From an uncultured Gemmatimonadales bacterium (lineage in GTDB: Bacteria > Gemmatimonadota > Gemmatimonadetes > Longimicrobiales > Gaopeijiaceae), in contig CAWELD010000010.1 in NCBI GenBank assembly GCA_963809895.1, positions 1,024,001 to 1,088,000 on the forward strand: DNA of 64,000 nt. Direction: 5' to 3'. Below, one piece after another: positions 12,474 to 26,521 of this stretch. The notes below the pieces were generated by a model. It made no database searches. It had not been told where the DNA came from and saw only the letters and a program-made list of their open reading frames with translations. Each line of letters opens with the position of its first letter. Within the stretch, counting starts at the first letter, position 1. A program made the translations under genes and the position numbers.

Positions 12474-14934
12474 ATGCCTGAGCGTAACCTGACCTTCCCC
12501 GTCACGGGGATGACCTGCGCCAACTGCGCGGCCACCGTGGAGCGTACGCTCCGCAAGACTCCCGGCGTGTCCGAGGCCGCGGTGAACTACGCCACCGAGA
12601 AGGCCACCGTGACCTTCGACGCCGGCACCGTGCGTGAAGACGGTCTGGCCGAGCGCATCCGGCACGCGGGCTACGACGTTCCGCTGGAACGCTTCGAGCT
12701 CGCCCTGACCGGGATGACCTGCGCGAACTGCGCGGCCACCATCGAGCGCACGCTGCAGTCCCGGATTCCGGGGGTGGTGTCGGCCGCGGTGAACTACGCC
12801 ACCGAGAAGGCGGTGGTGGACGTCATGGCCGGTGCCGTCGCCCGGGCCGAGCTGGCCCGTGCCGTCGAAGACGCCGGCTACGGGGTCGTGGAGCCCGCCG
12901 GCGGGGAAGCCCCAGACGACGCCGAGGCCCGAGCGCGAGCCCGGGAGATCGCTCACCAGACCCGCACCTTCTGGGTGGGCGTGGCGTTCTCGCTGCCGCT
13001 CTTCCTGCTGAGCATGGCAAGGGATTTCGGCCTCCTGGGTGCGTGGGCCCATGCGCCCTGGGTGAACGTCCTGATGCTCGCGCTGGCCGCGCCGGTGCAG
13101 TTCTACGTGGGTTGGGACTACTACGTCGGCGGATTCAAGGCGCTGCGGAACCGGACGGCCAACATGGACGTCCTGGTGGCGTTGGGCTCGTCGGCGGCCT
13201 TCTTCTATTCGGTGCCGGTGACGGTCGCGCTGCTGGCCGGCTCGACAGGACTGGGTGAGCACGTCTACTTCGAGACCGCCGCGGTCATCATCACGCTCAT
13301 CAAGCTGGGCAAGCTCCTGGAAGCCCGGGCCAAGGGCCGCACCAGCGAGGCGATCCGGCGGCTGCTCGATCTCCGACCTCGCACGGCGCGCCTGATCCGC
13401 GACGGTGAAGAGGTGGACGTGCCGCTGGAGCAGGTCCGGGTCGGCGACCTCCTGCGCGTACGTCCGGGCGAGTCGGTGCCCACCGACGGCGAGGTGGTGG
13501 AGGGACATTCGGCGGTGGACGAGAGCATGCTCACCGGTGAGAGCTTGCCGGTAGAGAAGGCGCCGGGCGACGCCCTGGCCGGGGCGACCGTGAACCGGAG
13601 CGGTGTGCTGAAGATGCGGGCCACCCGCGTGGGATCCGAGACGGCCCTGGCCCGCATCGTCCACATGGTCGAGGAGGCCCAGGGTAGCAAGGCCCCCATC
13701 CAGGCGGTGGCGGATCGGGCCGCCGCCGTGTTCGTGCCGGCGGTCCTGACGATCGCCGTCGTCACCTTCCTCGTGTGGTTCCTGGGAGTGGGCGCGGGAT
13801 TCACGACCTCCCTCATCCGCATGGTCGCCGTCCTGGTGATCGCGTGTCCGTGCGCGCTGGGTCTCGCCACGCCCACGGCGCTCATGGTGGGGACCGGAAA
13901 GGGGGCGGAGTACGGGATCCTCTTTCGCGATGCCACGGCGCTGGAGCGCGCACGCCAGCTGACGACCATCGTGCTGGACAAGACGGGCACCGTGACGCGG
14001 GGTGAGCCCGCGGTCCTGGACGTCGTTCCCGTCGCGGGCGCGGGGGTGGACGCCGACGAGCTGTTGGCGCTGGCCGCGGCGGTGGAGCGGGGCAGTGAGC
14101 ATCCGCTGGGGGAGGCGGTCGTGGCCGAGGCCCGACACCGGGGCATTGCCCTGCGCGAAGGGGTGGGCGCCGCGGCGGAGACCGGGCGAGGCATCCGGGC
14201 GACGGTGGACGGTCGCATGGTCCTGGTGGGGAGTCGCCGCCTTCTGGAGGAGGCCGGCGTGGACCCGACGCCCGCGGCGGCCCTGGCCGAGGCTCAGGAG
14301 GCTCGAGCTCGCACGGCCCTGTTCGTGGCCGCCGACGGCCGCGTGCTCGGGGTCATCGGCGTTGCGGATACGGTCAAGGACGGCGCGCGCCAGGCGGTGC
14401 AGGATCTGCGGAGCGCCGGGCCTCCACGTGGTGCTCCTCACCGGAGACAATCCCCGCACCGCCGAGGCCGTGGCCCGACAGGTGGGTATCGACGAGGTCC
14501 GGGCCCAGGTGCTCCCCGAGGACAAGGCGCGGGTGGTGGAGCAACTCCGCGAGCGGGGACCGGTGGCCATGGTGGGGGACGGCATCAACGATGCCCCGGC
14601 CCTGGCCACGGCCGACGTCGGGATCGCCATGGGCACGGGCACCGACGTGGCCATGGAGACGGCCGACGTGACGCTCATGCGGGGTGATCTGAACGCCGTG
14701 CCCCAGGCGCTGCGACTGTCGCGGGCCACGCTGCGCACGATCCGGGAGAACCTGTTCTGGGCCTTCGGCTACAACGTGGTCCTCATCCCGGTGGCCGCGG
14801 GAGTGCTCTACCCGTTCGAGGGCCTGCCCGGGATGCTCCGCCAACTCCACCCCATCCTGGCGGCGCTGGCCATGGCCTTCAGCAGCGTGAGCGTGGTGTC
14901 CAACAGCCTGCGCCTGAGGAAGGTGCAGTTGTAG
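12474..14934 (+). CDS. copA: Cu(I) P1B-type ATPase, split by a +1 indel at about 14418-14420
   Basis: Two GMTCANC domains, YFET, TGES, CPC, DKTGT and SEHP in the first frame; [16 protein letters not shown] and MAFSS in the next. Removing one G from GCCGGG joins the two. Confidence 0.93.
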
Positions 14935-18672: not shown

Positions 18673-21600
18673 ATGCGCGTTCTGCACTCCGGGAGGCTCG
18701 CCGCCCTGGCGGGCGCCCTCCTGGCCCCGACGCTGGCGTTGGCGACGCCGGCGCGAGCTCAGCTCAGCACGCCGCTGGATTCGGCCATGTTGGCGAGCTT
18801 CCAGTGGCGCAACATCGGCCCGGCCAACATCGCCGGCCGGGTCACCGACATCGAGGGGATCGGCAGTCCTTCGAAGACCTTCTTCGTAGCCAGCGCCGGC
18901 GGGGGGATCTGGAAGACCACCAACAACGGCACGACCTTCAAGCCGGTCTTCGACGTCGGGCGCGTGGTGGCCATGGGAGATCTGGCCATCGCGCCCTCGG
19001 ACACCATGCAGGTCTGGGCGGGCACGGGTGAGGGCAACACGCGCAATTCCATCTCACCCGGCGGCGGAATCTACAAGTCCACCGACGGGGGGATGACCTG
19101 GGCGCTCATGGGCCTCGAGGAGACCCAGGTGATCGCCCGGGTCCTGGTGGATCCGCGCAATGCGGACGTGGTCTACGCGGCGGCGTTGGGCCACATCTGG
19201 GACTCGAATCCCGAGCGCGGCCTCTACAAGACCACCGACGGTGGCCGCACCTGGCAACTGAAGAAGTTCATCAGCGACAAGGCCGGATTCGCGGACATCG
19301 TCATGGATCCGCGCAATCCCGACATCCTGTTCGCATCCAGTTGGCAGCGCGTGCGCGGACCCTGGTTCCTGGACAGCGGCGGGCCCGGCAGCGGGCTGTG
19401 GAAGTCCACCGACGCCGGCGAGACCTGGACGGAGGTCGTGGGCAACGGCTTTCCCACGGCGATGAAGGGCCGGATCGGCCTCGCCATCTCTCCGTCACGC
19501 CCGGACATCATGTACGCCCTGGTCGAGGCCGAGAAGGAGACCGACGGCTCCGGCGGATCGGGCCTCTACCGCACCGACGACGCCGGCGCCACCTGGCAGA
19601 AGATGAACGACGAGAACACGCGTCCCTTCTACTACTCGCAGGTGCGTGTGGACCCGGCGAACCCCGATCGCGTCTACTGGTCGTCCACGCCCGTGCGCTA
19701 CTCCAACGACGGGGGTCGCACGGCCGGCAACGCCACCGTGGGCATCCACGTGGACCAGCACGCCATGTGGATCGACCCCAACGATCCGCAGCACTTCGTC
19801 ACCGGCAACGACGGCGGCATCGCCCAGACCTGGGATCAGGGCGGCAGCTTCGAGTTCATCAACACCTTCGCCATCGGGCAGCTCTACCACGTCTCCTTCA
19901 ACATGGACGTGCCCTACCAGGTGTGCGGAGGCCTTCAGGACAACGGCAGCTGGTGCGGACCGTCGCGGCGCGCCCGCGGTGGGATCGACAACTACATGTG
20001 GGCCACCGTAGCCGGCGGTGACGGATTCTACTCGGCGCAGCATCCCGAGCTTCCCTACCTGGTGTGGGCCGAGTCCCAGGGCGGCAACATGTCGCGCGTG
20101 GACATGCGCACCGGCCAGCGCGTGGGTCTGCAGAAGCCACAGTGGCGGGATCGCTACCTCGAGTTCGAAGACTCCATCCTGGTCATCTGGGACGACTCGA
20201 CGCACAATCCCCCGGCAGACGCCCAGCGGCGCATCGAACGGATCCGGCAGGAGCAGCAGGCGGACTCCGCCGCCCGTGAGCTGCGCTGGAACTGGGACAC
20301 GCCGTTCTTCCTGTCACCCCACGATCCCGACGTCTTCTACGCCGGTGCCAACCGTGTGCTGAAGAGCACGAAGCTCGGTGACGATCTGCGGGTGATCTCG
20401 CCGGACCTGAGCACGCAGGACCCGGGCAAGATCCATGTCTCCACGGAGACCACGGGCGGCATCACCCCCGACGTCACCGGTGCGGAGACCCACGCGACCA
20501 TCGTCACGCTGGACGAATCGCCCATCGTGCAGGGGATGCTGTTCGCCGGCACCGACGACGGCAACGTCTGGATGAGCCCCGACGACGGCGCCCGTTGGAC
20601 GCAGCTCAACGACCGCTTCACCGGCAAGGTGCCCGACAGCACCTACGTGAGCCGCATCGAGCCGTCCAGCTTCGACCGCAACCGCTTCTACGTCACCTTC
20701 GACAACCACCGCCGCAACGACTTCACACCGTACGTGTTCGTCACCGACGACGGCGGCAAGAGCTTCCGCTCCATCGCCGGCGGGCTGCCCAGCGACGGCC
20801 CCGCGTACGTGCACGTGATCCGCGAAGACCCCACCAACCCCAACCTGCTCTTCGTGGGGACCGACCTGGGGGTGTGGGTGTCCACGGACCGTGGCGGCTC
20901 CTGGCAGCGCTTCATGAGCGGGATGCCCACGGTGCCGGTGCGGGACCTGGAGATCCATCCGCGGGACCGGGAGCTGATCGCGGCCACCCACGGGCGCTCC
21001 ATCTGGATCGTGGACATCGCCCCCCTGCAGCAGATGACGGATCAGGTCATGGCACAGGGTGCCGTGCTCTTCGAGCCCGCGCCGGGACTCGAGTTCGGCG
21101 ATCGGCCCATCGGTGGCGAGTCCACCGGGCACAAGTGGTTCGAGGGTGAGAGCCGGCCCTACGGCGCCGCCATCAGCTACTATCTGCCGGCTGACGTAGA
21201 GGGCCGTCAGGTGGAGCTGACCATCACGGGGCTCCGACGGCAAGGTGTTCGGGACCGCCAACGGTGTCGGCCGAGCCGGGTTGCAGACGGCGCTGTGGAA
21301 CTTCCGGGGCGAGGCCCCCCCGGCGGCCGCGCTGTCGCCTGCCGAGCGGCGGGACAGCCTCCAGTCCGTGGCCATGATGCGGGCCGTGGCCGATTCCCTG
21401 GTGGAGCACGAGGGCGCCGACCGGCAGGAGATGGACGACGCGCTGGAGAACATGCTTTCCGGCGGAAATCGGCGCTTCCGCGGCTTCGGTGGCGGGGGCG
21501 GTGGACGAGGGGGCGCGGCTTCCGACCGGCCCGGCGAGACGCCGACGGCGCCCTTCCAGGCCGAAGGCCAGGGTCGGGGCGGCTTCGGTGGGCCAGGCGG

Positions 21601-21883
21601 CAACGCCATGCGCGATCTGCTGGGCGCGATGCGCGATCGAGGCATGGGCTTCAACGCGCTGCGTGGCCGCGGTGGCCCGAGCGCGCCCATGGCCGAGGCC
21701 GGCGTCTACACGGTTTCCATGACGGTCAACGGCAAGACGCTGAGCGTGCCGTTGGAGATCATCCGCCAGGGCGACCTGCAGCCCGACGAGTCGCCCTTCG
21801 AGATGTTCGGGGGTGCCGGCTCGTGGGACGAGCTGTTCGAGATGCTCGACGAAGGCCGGTTGGAGTTGGACGGAGGGTTCTGA
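18673..21883 (+). CDS. Secreted VPS10/sortilin-like BNR-repeat beta-propeller protein, split by a +1 indel at about 21228-21231
   Basis: Signal peptide; WRNIGP..GR, repeated Asp-boxes (KSTDGGxTW), GGLQDNGSW, RWNWDTP, ATHGRSIW. The C-terminus continues in the 21245-21883 frame. Confidence 0.88.
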
Positions 21884-21890
21884 AACAGTG

Positions 21891-21923
21891 AGGCCCGGGG
21901 TCGCGTGTCGCGGCCCCGGGCCT
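21891..21923. terminator. 15-bp GC hairpin, probably a bidirectional terminator
   Basis: AGGCCCGGGGTCGCG-TGT-CGCGGCCCCGGGCCT directly after the stop at 21883. Confidence 0.75.
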
Positions 21924-21941
21924 ACCGGCTGTCAGGTGGTG

Positions 21942-22152
21942 GCATGCCTCCTCCGTGAGAAGGTACCGACCCTTTGCTGCGGGCCCGGCACGGTGCCGGT
22001 ACACCGTGGATCCGTCCCGGTGGGGACGCCTGCCCGCGCTGCCTCCGCTCGTGCCACGCGGCCGTCTGCGTCGCCTCATTCCGAGGCTGCGGGAGCGTGA
22101 CCTCGCTCCCCTCTTGGCGGGGCCAGACCGTGGCCCACGGGGGGAAGCAGCT
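21942..22152 (-). ncRNA. Candidate structured non-coding RNA (~210 nt), family not recognised
   Basis: 5' and 3' ends pair; at least five internal helices; G-U pairs favour the minus strand; promoter-like site upstream and hairpin downstream (see findings). Confidence 0.6.
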
Positions 22153-22158
22153 AACTCA

Positions 22159-22187
22159 ATGATTGCTTCGGCAGAGCCTCCGCGCAA
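22159..22187 (-). promoter_or_regulatory. Putative sigma70-type promoter for the candidate ncRNA
   Basis: TTGCGC (22187-22182), 17-nt spacer, AATCAT (22164-22159); predicted +1 is the A at 22152. Confidence 0.5.
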
Positions 22188-22247
22188 GCTTCTCGTGGGC
22201 GTGTTTCCTGCCCCCCTCGGCGGGGTCTCCGGAGCCGTGCCGACGAC

Positions 22248-23813
22248 TCACCGGAACGGGTCGGCGCGAAGGACGTCCGGCACCGGATTGAGCGCCGCGA
22301 CGGGTGCCCATTCGCCGGGAGCGACGTGCTGGGCCGCGAACCGCCGCGGCTCGAATCCCGCCCGCGCGACGGCGGCTGCCACGTCGGTGGCGTAGAGGCT
22401 CTGGGCGGAGGTGGTCTGGATCCAGTCACCGGCCCACAGGAACGCATCGTCGGGCACGTACGCCAGCAGGGCCCCGAAGGCCGCGCGGCCGCCGATGGTG
22501 CGCAGGCGCAGCTTGCCGCCCGCCAGGTCCAGGCCGTCATCGACGCCCACGAATCGGAACGGCACCGACGCTCCGGCCCGCACCCGTTCCAGGGCGTCGG
22601 GGGTATGGGTCCAACGCCGCTCCACCAGCCGGGTGAGGAAGTCGCGTGCCGATCGGTGCGCCACCACGGTGGCGCCACGGGCCACCCAGAACCGCACGCC
22701 GCCGATGTGAGGCCAGGCGAGGTCGGTCACCACCACCACGCGGTTGGGGGCATCGGGAAAGAGCGTGGCCGCCAACGCGGAGTCTTGCCGTGCGCGCTTT
22801 TCCGAGAGGGTGGCATCGAGCACGTAGACCGTGTCACCCACCTGTACCAGGGTCTCGTTGTACGCCTGGTCCGCCAACACCACGACATGGTCGGACTGGC
22901 GCACGGTGTCCGGCGGCTGGGCACTCCACGCCGCCAGAAATACGTCCTCGGTGGCCCGGGCGGCCTCGGCGGGCACCTCCGGGATGGGGGATCGGCTCCG
23001 GGGAAGTATTTCCATGCGGCCCAGCGTCCGCTCCCGCTGGATCCCGCCATCCTCGAGCTGATGGGCCGCGCTGGGAAAGTAGCCGCCGTCGCCGGTGGCG
23101 ATCCAGGTGCTCCACAGGATCTCCTCGTGCCGCTGGCCCCAGGTGGCGTGGGGTCGGATGCGCTCGAGCTTCACGGGGAGCGCCGTGGCGAGATCCAGGA
23201 ACAGTCGGTCGGGACCGAAGGCTCCCCCGCGGCTGAGCACGATGCGCGGCAGGTCGCGGTAGTCGCACACACCCGCCACGCGCACGTCGGACGCACGACT
23301 CCAGTCCAGTAGCACGGCCCAGGGGTTCATCTCGCGTTGCGGGGCCATGGCGGCGTGGAACGACGCGGCCTCCCGCAACTGTCCCTCCACCTCCACCCAG
23401 GTCGTGCGGGCGTCGGTGACGGCGGTGCGCGGCTCCCCCGGGCCGGTCTTGGGAAAGACGCCGGTGAAGGACTCGCGTTGGACGCCCGTCCGTGGATCGT
23501 ACCAGCTCTCCGCCGACTGCAGGGCCGAGAAGAACGGCGGATACGTGCGATCCGACTGGAAGTCCATACTCTGGGTGCCCATGCTCCAGAAGTGGAACAC
23601 CCCGTCGTCCGGCACCTCCATGGAGGCGCGGGCCGCGCTCAGCCAGGCATCGGCGGATCGTGAGTCGGCGGCGGCCCGACAGGCGTCCAGGCTCTGGGCA
23701 TGTGCGGGCCGGACGGCCAGCGTGCCCAGGAGGCATGCCAGAGCGACGCGTCGGCCGGTCGCGAGTGGGGCGCGGTCGGTGGGCCGGAAGGGGCGGGAAG
23801 GGGAGGGATTCAT
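22248..23813 (-). CDS. Secreted protein with a C-terminal degenerate metallo-beta-lactamase-like domain
   Basis: GAGGAG RBS; signal ending AHA-Q; VYVLDA..VVVTDLAWPHIGGVR..GATVVAH..LLAYVP..LWAGD follows MBL-fold motif order, but HxHxDH is eroded. Confidence 0.7.
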   Translation of the reverse strand: MNPSPSRPFRPTDRAPLATGRRVALACLLGTLAVRPAHAQSLDACRAAADSRSADAWLSAARASMEVPDDGVFHFWSMGTQSMDFQSDRTYPPFFSALQSAESWYDPRTGVQRESFTGVFPKTGPGEPRTAVTDARTTWVEVEGQLREAASFHAAMAPQREMNPWAVLLDWSRASDVRVAGVCDYRDLPRIVLSRGGAFGPDRLFLDLATALPVKLERIRPHATWGQRHEEILWSTWIATGDGGYFPSAAHQLEDGGIQRERTLGRMEILPRSRSPIPEVPAEAARATEDVFLAAWSAQPPDTVRQSDHVVVLADQAYNETLVQVGDTVYVLDATLSEKRARQDSALAATLFPDAPNRVVVVTDLAWPHIGGVRFWVARGATVVAHRSARDFLTRLVERRWTHTPDALERVRAGASVPFRFVGVDDGLDLAGGKLRLRTIGGRAAFGALLAYVPDDAFLWAGDWIQTTSAQSLYATDVAAAVARAGFEPRRFAAQHVAPGEWAPVAALNPVPDVLRADPFR

Positions 23814-23926: not shown

Positions 23927-26521
23927 TCAGAGCAGGCCCACCGCCTCTGCTCGCGCCAGGGCCTGTATCCGGGAGCCGGCGTCGAGCTTCCGATAGAGGC
24001 GTTGCAGGTGTGTCTTGACCGTGCTCAACGACACGCCCAGCTCCCTGGCCATGGCTTTGTTGCTCATCCCCCGGGCCAGAAGGTGCAGCACATCGGCCTC
24101 CCGGGCGGTGAGCTGTGGTTGCCCGTGGAGGGAACGAGCGGACTCGGCCTCGACGGCGCGGGCCACGCGGTTGAGGTGGGCCAGGCCGTCGGGAGCGGGC
24201 CGGACTCCTTCCAGCACGGGCGCGATGTGTGCAGCCTGGTCGGCGAAGACGCGGACCCAACCCTCGGGGCGGGCCTGGTTCAGTGCGCGCTCGAGGGCCT
24301 CGACCGCGGCGTCACGGTGGCCGAGCGCTTCCAGCGCGCCGGCTTCCAGCACACCGAAGTGGACCGCGAAGGCCGAGCGACGGCCCTCCAGCGCTGCGCC
24401 GCGCGCCGCGCGGGCCAACGCCAGCGCCTCGTCGTCCCGCTCCAGGGCGAGCAACGCCTCCACCACCGTTGCGATCTCCTGAAGTCGAGCGTGGAGCTCC
24501 GACGGAGGTGATTCAGCGAGAGAGCGGGGCTCGTACCTGCGCCGTCGGAGCCAGGTGGCCACGGCGTCGAGGTCGCCGGCCGCCAGTGCGAACCCGGCGC
24601 GCACCCCGTCCAGCCATTCCCGGTTGCGGTCCGATAGGGGGGTGGTCGCCATGAGACGGCCGAGATCGTCCAGGCGGGCACGGGCCTCGTCCGGGCGATT
24701 CAGGCGGAGCAGCACCGTGGCGAGTACCCGGTAGGCGCCTGTGAGCACGCCTCGATGCTCCAGCGGCTCGGCCAGCTCCACGGCTCGGGTCAACGAGGCC
24801 TCCGACTCCTCCAGCGCGTTCCATTCATACTGCAGATACCCGAGGAATTGATGCGCCATGGCCTCGCCCACCGGTGCCGCACCGTCGTGGCTGGAGGCCA
24901 CCTGAAGGGCGCTCTCCAGCGCCTCGCGCGAGGCGTGGGAGCGGCCGAGCATCATGAGGAGCACACCGGCCATGGAGCGCCCCACGGCCGCTTCGGCCGG
25001 ACGGTCCACCCGGGCTCCGACCTGGTGGGCCAGGGCAAGGGCGTCCTCTGCCAGCTCGGGATCGCCGGTGAAGCGGAATCCGACCTGGAGCAGGCTGAGC
25101 GTCTGGAGGGCCAGGAAGGGATCCCCGGCGGGCAGGGCCCCGCGGGCGCGGCGGGCCGCGGCGGCCGTCGCCGCCACGTCGCCCCGTGACAGGGCTCCCA
25201 CGGCCCGCACCAGGTGGTCCAGGCAGCGAAGGTCGGCGCCGGCGTCGTCGGGCAGGGGGGGCAGGTCCACGCCGCCGCCGTTGCCCCGGTGATAGGCGAA
25301 CCACGCCCGCAGCCGGGTGGCCACCGGCGCGTCGCGCAGGACATTTCCGGGAATGGCCTCGAGCGTGCGCGCCAACCAGCGACTCCGACCTCGCGCCAAC
25401 AAGGGGCCCGCGTCGGCCTCCATCCAACGCAGCGCCAGGCGCGGCCGCCGCGCCGTGAGGGCGTGCTCCACCGCCGACTCGATGCGACTCTGCGCCGCAT
25501 GGTGGTGCGCCAGTTTCAGGTGCAACGAGCGCCAGTCGCCCTCCTCGTGGGTATGCAGATCCTCCGCGAGCACCTCACGGAGCAGGGGATGCAGTCGGAA
25601 GGTGTCGAGATCGGGGCCCCGGGTCACGAACCAGCCGCGAGACTCCAGCGCCTCCAGGAAGCGCGTGGGGTCGCCTTCGGGGTCGAGCAGGGTTCGGGTG
25701 GGACCGTCCAGCTCGTCGGCTACCGACAGGCGGGCGAGGCGGGCCGCCGTGGCGTCACCCAGCGCAGGCACCACCTCCTGGCGGACGAAGTCTGCCAGAA
25801 GCCCCGATGACGCCGGTTCCGAGACCAGCGCGCCGCTGCCTTCCCGGGCCAGCACCCTGAGGGCCACCGGCCAACCGCCGGACCGTGCCAGGATCTGCTC
25901 GAGGGTTTCGGCGTCCGGCTCGAGCCCGGCTCCTTCCAACAACGCGCGAGCTTCGGCCTGGTCGGCGGCGAGCTCGGCGGGCCCGATCCTGCGCAGCGCT
26001 CCAGCCACCTCCAGGCGGGCCCAGCGGAGCTCGGGCAGGGTGCGTCCGGACAGGACCAGGAGGCGCCCCCCGGGCCAGCCTCGTGTGAAGGCGTCGAGCC
26101 AGGCCGCCAGCCCGGGGTCCGGGTCCGCTTCGTGAAGCTCGTCCAGGACCAGTGCGGTGCGGGGGGCGAGGAGGTCGGCCGACCTCGCCAGGGCGGCGCC
26201 CACGGCCCGAGCCTCGGGCGAGACCGCTTCCAGCCCGGCGCGCGCGGACCCGGCGGGTGCCCCCAGCCCCTCCAGCGCCGTCGCCGTTCGCCGGGCTGCG
26301 TCGGCCCATTCGTCGCCGGGCAGGAGGGTGACCCAGCCCACGGCCTGCTTCCGGTGGTGCGCCCATCCGGCCAACGCCCAGCTCTTTCCCCATCCCCCCG
26401 CCGCCTCCACGGCCACCACCCTCACCGGCTCCGGCGCCTCCAGGAGCGTCGAGATCCGCTCCCGGTGGACGTGGACAGGCGAAAGGGGCGGTGCCGACGT
26501 CAAGGGCCTCCCCCGGTACAC
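23927..26521 (-). CDS. MalT/LAL-type large LuxR transcriptional regulator (start uncertain, 26503-26611)
   Basis: Walker A AAGGWGKS, LVLDELH, GGWPVAL, FRLHPLLRE, TPR-like region, C-terminal LTAREADVL..GMSNKAMA..TVKTHL. Confidence 0.9.
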   Translation of the reverse strand: MYRGRPLTSAPPLSPVHVHRERISTLLEAPEPVRVVAVEAAGGWGKSWALAGWAHHRKQAVGWVTLLPGDEWADAARRTATALEGLGAPAGSARAGLEAVSPEARAVGAALARSADLLAPRTALVLDELHEADPDPGLAAWLDAFTRGWPGGRLLVLSGRTLPELRWARLEVAGALRRIGPAELAADQAEARALLEGAGLEPDAETLEQILARSGGWPVALRVLAREGSGALVSEPASSGLLADFVRQEVVPALGDATAARLARLSVADELDGPTRTLLDPEGDPTRFLEALESRGWFVTRGPDLDTFRLHPLLREVLAEDLHTHEEGDWRSLHLKLAHHHAAQSRIESAVEHALTARRPRLALRWMEADAGPLLARGRSRWLARTLEAIPGNVLRDAPVATRLRAWFAYHRGNGGGVDLPPLPDDAGADLRCLDHLVRAVGALSRGDVAATAAAARRARGALPAGDPFLALQTLSLLQVGFRFTGDPELAEDALALAHQVGARVDRPAEAAVGRSMAGVLLMMLGRSHASREALESALQVASSHDGAAPVGEAMAHQFLGYLQYEWNALEESEASLTRAVELAEPLEHRGVLTGAYRVLATVLLRLNRPDEARARLDDLGRLMATTPLSDRNREWLDGVRAGFALAAGDLDAVATWLRRRRYEPRSLAESPPSELHARLQEIATVVEALLALERDDEALALARAARGAALEGRRSAFAVHFGVLEAGALEALGHRDAAVEALERALNQARPEGWVRVFADQAAHIAPVLEGVRPAPDGLAHLNRVARAVEAESARSLHGQPQLTAREADVLHLLARGMSNKAMARELGVSLSTVKTHLQRLYRKLDAGSRIQALARAEAVGLL

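Follow-up and report, generated by a model that had tools for sequence, protein, structure and literature searches.

The RNA Gene and Its Surroundings

The window analyzed here is a stretch of 64,000 nucleotides from an uncultured member of the Gemmatimonadota. The element of interest lies on the minus strand in the gap between a convergent gene for a VPS10/BNR protein (18673–21883, plus strand) and an upstream gene for an MBL-fold protein (22248–23813, minus strand), just where the preliminary description of the locus had put it; both neighbors are outside the element. The MBL-fold assignment comes from atlas look-alikes (score 0.95), while a Pfam search with this protein returned no match and no viral relative was found for it. 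The next gene upstream of the latter encodes a MalT-like LuxR regulator (23927–26470, minus strand). In the VPS10/BNR gene, the frame breaks at 21230–21245 (plus strand), either through an assembly error or as a real frameshift, and the C-terminal 212 amino acids are read in another frame up to 21883. An apparent frame change is also seen at 14200–14260 in the ORF of a heavy-metal P-type ATPase (from 12474, plus strand), which continues in an ORF ending at 14934 and suggests indel errors in the assembly.

The whole predicted transcript occupies 21885–22152 of the minus strand. At about 265 nt, from 22152 to a terminator near 21885, it is longer than the ~210 nt originally proposed. A predicted sigma70-type promoter, identified by motif inspection and by sites of the same form in homologs, consists of a −35 element at 22182–22187 and a −10 element at 22159–22164, separated by a 17-nt spacer that places the +1 at 22152. 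The claim that the element has its own promoter holds for this conserved form, but the site falls below the threshold of a consensus promoter scanner, which found none.

Fold coordinates and covariation define the parts that follow, all on the minus strand. The 5′ domain is a long hairpin (22038–22151) made up of P1 (22151–22145 with 22044–22038), P2 (22139–22136 with 22053–22050), a GG bulge (22135–22134), and P3 (22133–22129 with 22058–22054), and it is capped by a junction with hairpins P6 (22110–22091) and P7 (22087–22073). In the 3′ three-way junction (21979–22037), P8 (22037–22032 with 21984–21979) encloses P9 (22028–22013) and P10 (22008–21989), and the P10 loop (22001–21995) pairs with 21970–21964 to give a pseudoknot (21964–22001). 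A Shine-Dalgarno (SD) hairpin (21947–21963), placed by homologs and fold, carries the SD (21954–21947) in its 3′ strand. Comparison with homologs then identifies a putatively translated minigene, M-P-P-P-D-S-R-stop (21922–21945), which, judged from the sequence, is the only reading frame of the RNA gene. A terminator-like hairpin (21891–21923), retained in homologs, comes last and probably also ends the convergent plus-strand gene. This strong hairpin had been pointed out before, and the other motifs and hairpins named at that time are all found at their minus-strand positions; that account did not yet include the conserved Pro-Pro minigene, its ribosome-binding site, or the pseudoknot.

The RNA has no match in Rfam at the gathering score across the 64-kb window; at E ≤ 10 only chance matches of hairpin size appear, and ten homolog loci give no match at E ≤ 0.5. 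ARAGORN detects no tRNA-like domain or tmRNA in the window. Family models locate the RNase P and tmRNA genes elsewhere in the genome, as well as an SRP match that lies below the family cutoff (E 1.9e-4). These results agree with the earlier statements that the element is novel with respect to Rfam and is not RNase P, tmRNA, SRP, or a common riboswitch. A genome-wide search finds the RNA gene as a single copy, which also upholds the view that it is not a dispersed repeat.

Homologs and Distribution

BLAST against 60 relatives yields short chance matches only, and homologs therefore had to be sought with covariance models. A model built on the single sequence finds the RNA in 8 of 150 family genomes, and rebuilt models find it in 19 and 20 of 150. 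None of 19 congeners has the RNA in model searches, and a model search of 150 phylum genomes gives no convincing match; one candidate from that search, L267, was dropped as it resembles coding DNA. A pattern for the 5′ part alone adds 14 further distinct copies from genome and metagenome collections, after model R2 had rejected 57 of the 70 matches in genome contigs and 22 of the 37 in metagenomes, and three duplicates had been removed. The 13 genome records that pass the model are all labeled as members of the Gemmatimonadota lineage, several of them as Longimicrobiales. Patterns for the tail caught copies missed by the models in families f1, f3, and f7: copies are present in 12 of 73 f3 genomes, and f7, of the same class, has one. 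For f1, inspection of 34 tail-pattern loci gave 16 new homologs plus one found before; among the new ones, L281, L283, and L285 have weak R3 scores and rest on the tail, the terminator, and partial structure. In total, 65 distinct homologous copies were collected, all from Gemmatimonadota, at unrelated loci, and 55–67% identical to the window copy where measured. The taxonomic range may be wider than found because the large model searches scored only ~14 candidates per genome. Among viral contigs, all 79 pattern matches were rejected by model R2 and two further scans gave zero matches; BLAST against phages and plasmids found nothing real.

Of the genomes with the RNA, all but one carry a single copy. 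The exception holds a tandem pair 358 bp apart (G078:C5:200914-201496), the second member of which has neither the promoter nor the first P1 strand. The neighbors of the homologs are unrelated (M14 peptidase, amidase, response regulators, glutamate kinase-like, L21, MscS, permease, and integrase, from scans of 53 of 135 candidate frames), and the presumed gene labels proB, rny, rplU, and pheT are based in part on Pfam matches and translations. A heuristic call of the downstream gene gives 27 convergent and 22 codirectional among 49 callable cases, with at least one miscall (L145).

Several individual loci deserve mention. At L138 (G163), the RNA has a gene for a tyrosine integrase (Arm-DNA-bind_3, Phage_integrase) just upstream in divergent orientation, and the RNA gene may be an integration target. 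In genus g60 and at two metagenome loci (L139, L142, L250, and L234), a glutamate 5-kinase-like gene is directly downstream, as identified by AA_kinase scans of L139 (with PUA) and L250 and by similarity for L142 and L234; there, the Pro-Pro minigene could have been co-opted as an attenuator. In genus g84 (L145 and L146), the RNA is located between the genes for RNase E/G and ribosomal protein L21. The copy of G075 (L265/L296) has a 5′ sequence that is almost wholly different, with an apparently flipped first helix, and retains promoter, SD, MPPDS, and terminator. Four copies of genus g17 (L303, L304, L305, and L307) are shorter and without P9, and retain the pseudoknot region and the tail.

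Conserved Fold

Covariation was assessed on a MAFFT alignment of 34 copies that was not fitted to the structure. In a 42-pair model, 90.2% of the cells are paired and 24 pairs show changes on both sides, values that none of 500 shuffles reaches. Slid controls of the same model are 31–43% paired, a comparison that favors the model since it was derived from the same sequences. The pseudoknot alone has 93.1% of its cells paired with nine both-side cells, and one of 500 shuffles is as high. In the 11 f3 copies, which were found by the tail only, the bulged helix is 100% paired; the pseudoknot adjoining the SD has a different sequence and is 75.8% paired with one both-side change; and overall none of 500 shuffles is as high for percent paired. 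Folding from the predicted +1 recovers the covariation-supported helices unaided. As predicted from these comparisons, the conserved fold begins with a long 5′ hairpin bearing a two-G bulge and continues with a three-way junction, after which a pseudoknot forms immediately ahead of the SD hairpin.

Other pairings were considered and dropped. Pairing of a pseudoknot strand with the tail and pairing of a 5′ helix strand with the AUG region each show no both-side changes, and a pairing of the GG bulge with CC in the tail is not supported by variants of the bulge, in which the CC is unchanged. A mutual-information scan of the 34 rows yields one pair, the rest being too noisy.

The homologs thus support a fold other than the one first described. 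The long closing stem proposed for the element is the minimum-free-energy pairing in this sequence only: in the 34 homologs it is 46.3% paired, compared with 45.8% in shuffles. As this stem is not conserved and a multidomain fold is supported instead, the suggestion of a divergent 6S/Ms1-like RNA loses its basis. In folding energy, the minus strand from 21940 to 22155 has z = −2.6, but three of 40 random windows (mean −0.58, sd 1.1) are lower; the plus strand gives −1.5, and the minus strand from the +1 to 21925 gives −1.45. By itself, folding energy is only suggestive, and weak, evidence of structure.

Promoter and Transcription

A strict pattern for the promoter-like site is present upstream of 29 of 52 homologs, compared with 6 of 158 control windows. 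With a pattern relaxed for the sense strand, the site is seen there in 43 of 65 copies, compared with 3 of 65 on the antisense strand. Most homologs have a promoter-like site of their own, and all have the terminator hairpin.

Parts of the region are present in 11 RNA runs from ten studies. Contigs were placed from the top four runs (four studies), and X5–X11, with small shares, were left out. In all four runs, contigs fall within 21910–22132, with nothing over 22139–23000, and contigs from both sides end at 21910, in the loop of the terminator hairpin. The depth of the element contig in run X1 is 3824, as opposed to 12–13 at the end of the neighboring gene, and in run X2 the element has a depth of 55 next to 79 for an exact 148-nt contig on the RNase P gene of this genome; because the contigs are assembled and the runs were chosen for containing the stretch, these values speak for presence in RNA libraries and not for strand, ends, or level. 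The orientation is taken from the conserved promoter and terminator. The expected RNA is therefore found over the element in four of four runs, while the proposed start at 22152 lies beyond the contig end at 22132 and comes from promoter spacing. It is close to certain that the gene specifies a free-standing structured RNA, with a predicted length of ~265 nt.

Shine-Dalgarno Sequence and Pro-Pro Minigene

In all copies, a purine-rich SD is located a short distance, a few bases, ahead of the AUG, which is invariant. The duplex with the anti-SD amounts to −9.5 kcal/mol in the window copy and −6.6 to −12.7 kcal/mol in 52 homologs, and a strength of at least −9.3 kcal/mol is reached by 48 of 52 f1 copies, compared with 15% of the genome's strongest-SD candidate starts. 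In the 11 f3 copies with a terminator, the energy of the SD duplex ranges from −10.3 to −13.1 kcal/mol, against −3.2 for a chance match, and 10 of these 11 were first found by a pattern without the SD. All 14 copies from the 5′-only pattern likewise have SD and AUG, with 12 MPPG, one MTPG, and one MPPV.

Across the 65 copies, the peptide starts with MPPG in 54, MPPD in six, MPPV in two, MTPG in two, and MPPP in one, a tally that is biased since 29 copies were found by patterns requiring Pro-Pro and G-N-pyrimidine, and the copies are kin. This makes 61 of 65 copies with AUG-Pro-Pro-(Gly/Asp/Pro), placed about 21 nt ahead of the terminator, and the remaining four carry motifs outside the top set (MPPV and MTPG). 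The terminator arm begins 20–24 nt after the A of the AUG in 50 of 52 copies. Codon 3 encodes Pro in all 65, with all four synonymous codons in use, and codon 4 shows GGC/GGU synonymy and also GAC. The window minigene has a whole-codon insertion and is one codon beyond the consensus, the homologs being mostly M-P-P-G-x-x. The peptide is hydrophilic and mostly 5–14 amino acids long where a stop is present, with four conserved residues.

Stops also favor the frame of the minigene. Between nt 16 and 46 after the AUG, beyond the conserved 15-mer, 37 of 65 copies have a stop in frame, whereas the other two frames give 8 and 3; clustering the copies at 75% identity leaves 25 of 48 versus 5 and 3. 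The position of the stop varies, and 28 of 65 copies have none in frame by nt 46. Counting from the AUG and within 13 codons gives a weaker contrast between frames (28, 10, and 17 of 52). The in-frame stop bias and the synonymous changes point to translation, and we regard it as likely, from the sequence, that the minigene is translated.

The tail carries a further constraint. CCA is codon 2 in 43 of 52 copies, compared with 4 of 43 starts of this genome with Pro at codon 2; GGC is present in 54 of 65 and AGU in 31 of 52. CCA and AGU are thus the prevailing choices although both are rare codons, and 54 of 65 copies could form a GCC-loop-GGY mini-hairpin. Codon choice is far more fixed than selection on the peptide explains, which indicates that the tail of the minigene is partly conserved as RNA sequence. 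With its ribosome-binding site and Pro-Pro minigene, the RNA first described as a structured noncoding RNA keeps the structured, free-standing part of that description but is probably not strictly noncoding.

Proposed Mechanism and Alternatives

Selection seems to act on ribosome dwell, judging from the strong SD, the pause motif at codons 2–4, and the freely varying end of the peptide. PMC13602936 places PPG, PPD, and PPP in the group of five motifs with the strongest EF-P-dependent pausing, and ribosomes paused on minigenes stabilize RNA according to PMC8708949. It is quite possible, though we stop short of calling it probable, that the RNA loads a ribosome on its strong SD, pauses it at Pro-Pro-(Gly/Asp/Pro) by the terminator, and acts in trans as a ribosome-bound RNA. 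In such a scheme, 30S loading would be gated by the pseudoknot and the SD hairpin, and the ribosome would dwell at codons 2–4 for a duration set by EF-P and prolyl-tRNA supply. Ribosome occupancy would determine the stability or availability of the RNA, which could act in trans to take up or sense ribosomes, EF-P, and tRNA-Pro; the 5′ hairpin with its GG bulge is a candidate docking site for a partner. The peptide would not be the functional product, because its sequence and length are free after codon 5; with no gene to control in cis, that role would fall to the ribosome-bound RNA. Pausing at codons 2–4 may, however, lead to peptidyl-tRNA drop-off and not to a stable complex.

More tentatively, the RNA may be of a new bacterial kind, in which a built-in EF-P-dependent stall peptide captures a ribosome and reports or buffers elongation status in trans, without a target gene of its own. 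Stall peptides known so far work in cis on the gene that follows. In the present RNA, the most conserved part consists of the stall motif, the SD, and the spacing to the terminator, which persist despite turnover of the 5′ sequence and an opposed downstream gene. If ribosome holding is true, the RNA would sense or store translation capacity in a novel manner, within a phylum that is abundant, barely cultured, and without a recognized 6S RNA. The literature on structured or noncoding RNA, 6S, or pseudoknots in Gemmatimonadota and Longimicrobiales gave no earlier description, although the family could be listed in a motif table of a supplement or of a subscription journal; the phylum is absent from the main text of PMC11109978. 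The RNA is a real new family with an unusual conserved stall minigene. Its novelty rests on the architecture, from which we infer the mechanism, and a new family with covariation support and a pseudoknot stands even if the proposed mechanism is wrong.

Two other explanations concern what the tail does. A growth-braking minigene is unlikely, if worth keeping in mind. Here, round after round of translation would shed short prolyl peptidyl-tRNAs at a rate beyond the capacity of peptidyl-tRNA hydrolase and so drain tRNA-Pro, and the structured leader, like that of a type I toxin mRNA, would keep this off until a trigger comes. The strong SD and very short ORF fit it, as does the patchy distribution, and minigene toxicity through peptidyl-tRNA sequestration is described in PMC8708949, where toxicity nevertheless drops with minigene length; the last codon varies in our copies. 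The structured leaders, activating pseudoknots, and sequestered SD of timP and tisB (PMC11295053) are a further likeness, but here there are hardly any antisense promoter-like sites for an antitoxin (3/65) and no hydrophobic toxin peptide, and the apparent abundance of the RNA counts weakly against a toxin. That the RNA is purely noncoding, a protein scaffold or an RNA polymerase binder analogous to 6S/Ms1 with the SD-AUG-like tail as a structural or protein-binding motif, seems unlikely. In its favor, neither this genome nor 39 family genomes has an Rfam 6S match, the zapA-rny gap (G000 C3:803793-803949) is just 155 nt and too short for 6S, the tail is fixed at the nucleotide level, and the RNA is apparently abundant. 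Against this, conserved paired ends and a central bubble are absent, a housekeeping RNA would hardly be confined to ~14% of the genomes in the family and be missing from all 19 congeners searched, and the stop bias and synonymous changes call for translation.

Distribution and gene context bear on two more. In a cis attenuator, the progress of the ribosome through Pro-Pro-Gly would set formation of the terminator and hence read-through into the downstream gene or antisense to the convergent gene. The fixed spacing between AUG and terminator and the glutamate 5-kinase-like gene that comes next in genus g60 and at the two metagenome loci agree with such control, glutamate 5-kinase being the first step of proline synthesis. 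The downstream genes, however, have no common theme and about half, including that of the window, are convergent, so a standard attenuator is not indicated; the RNA contigs moreover end in the terminator loop. We consider this explanation quite unlikely, even with the precedent of pyrL, where a polyproline stall before the terminator raises termination without EF-P (PMC5021804). It is very unlikely that the RNA is a selfish or mobile element with no host function. The locus differs in each genus, the 19 congeners searched lack the RNA, and there are one tandem partial duplicate and one adjacent integrase, but the RNA is single copy in all genomes but one, has no linked enzyme gene and no matches in viral contigs, phages, or plasmids, and its tree joins several genera.

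Comparison with Known Systems

A riboswitch is not supported, as there is no Rfam match and no consistent downstream gene, and resemblances to cobalamin, FMN, raiA, and T-box RNAs have no Rfam support. A dispersed repeat or MITE is not supported either, given the single copy in the genome. Like the present RNA, tmRNA is a structured RNA with a pseudoknot before a short ribosome-engaging ORF; unlike tmRNA, the present RNA has no tRNA-like domain, has its own SD and AUG, and the tmRNA gene of this genome is elsewhere. It shares size, a free-standing gene, and apparent abundance with 6S and Ms1, in a host lineage without detectable 6S, but lacks an RF00013 match, paired ends, a central bubble, and conserved synteny, is patchy in presence, and contains an SD and an ORF. 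Ms1 has a central bubble with extra terminal hairpins, conserved synteny, and a presence in most of its lineage according to PMC9130861; bubble, synteny, and lineage-wide presence are all missing here.

The strong SD and tiny ORF recall minigenes such as axe-txe mg2, where ribosome dwell could stabilize RNA or drain tRNA. Another such minigene is lambda bar. Known minigenes have two codons and lie inside other transcripts, whereas here a Pro-Pro motif is combined with its own promoter, fold, and terminator. The type I toxin mRNAs timP and tisB are likewise free-standing, with a long structured leader and a pseudoknot upstream of a sequestered SD (PMC11295053); the present ORF differs in being hydrophilic, and antisense promoter-like sites that might serve an antitoxin are few (3 of 65). 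The uORF attenuators (pyrL and the ilvB and fthC uORF motifs) offer an SD, a short ORF with stall-prone codons, and a stop that in many cases falls within a terminator-like hairpin or at its base (PMC5021804 and PMC11109978). In contrast to them, the present RNA has no consistent codirectional downstream gene (27 convergent and 22 codirectional of 49), its ORF comes after a conserved fold of 200 nt that includes a pseudoknot, and the short transcript itself appears to accumulate. Judged by the features tested, the RNA does not qualify as 6S, Ms1, a riboswitch, a uORF attenuator, a type I toxin mRNA, or a repeat, and it borrows parts from several of them.
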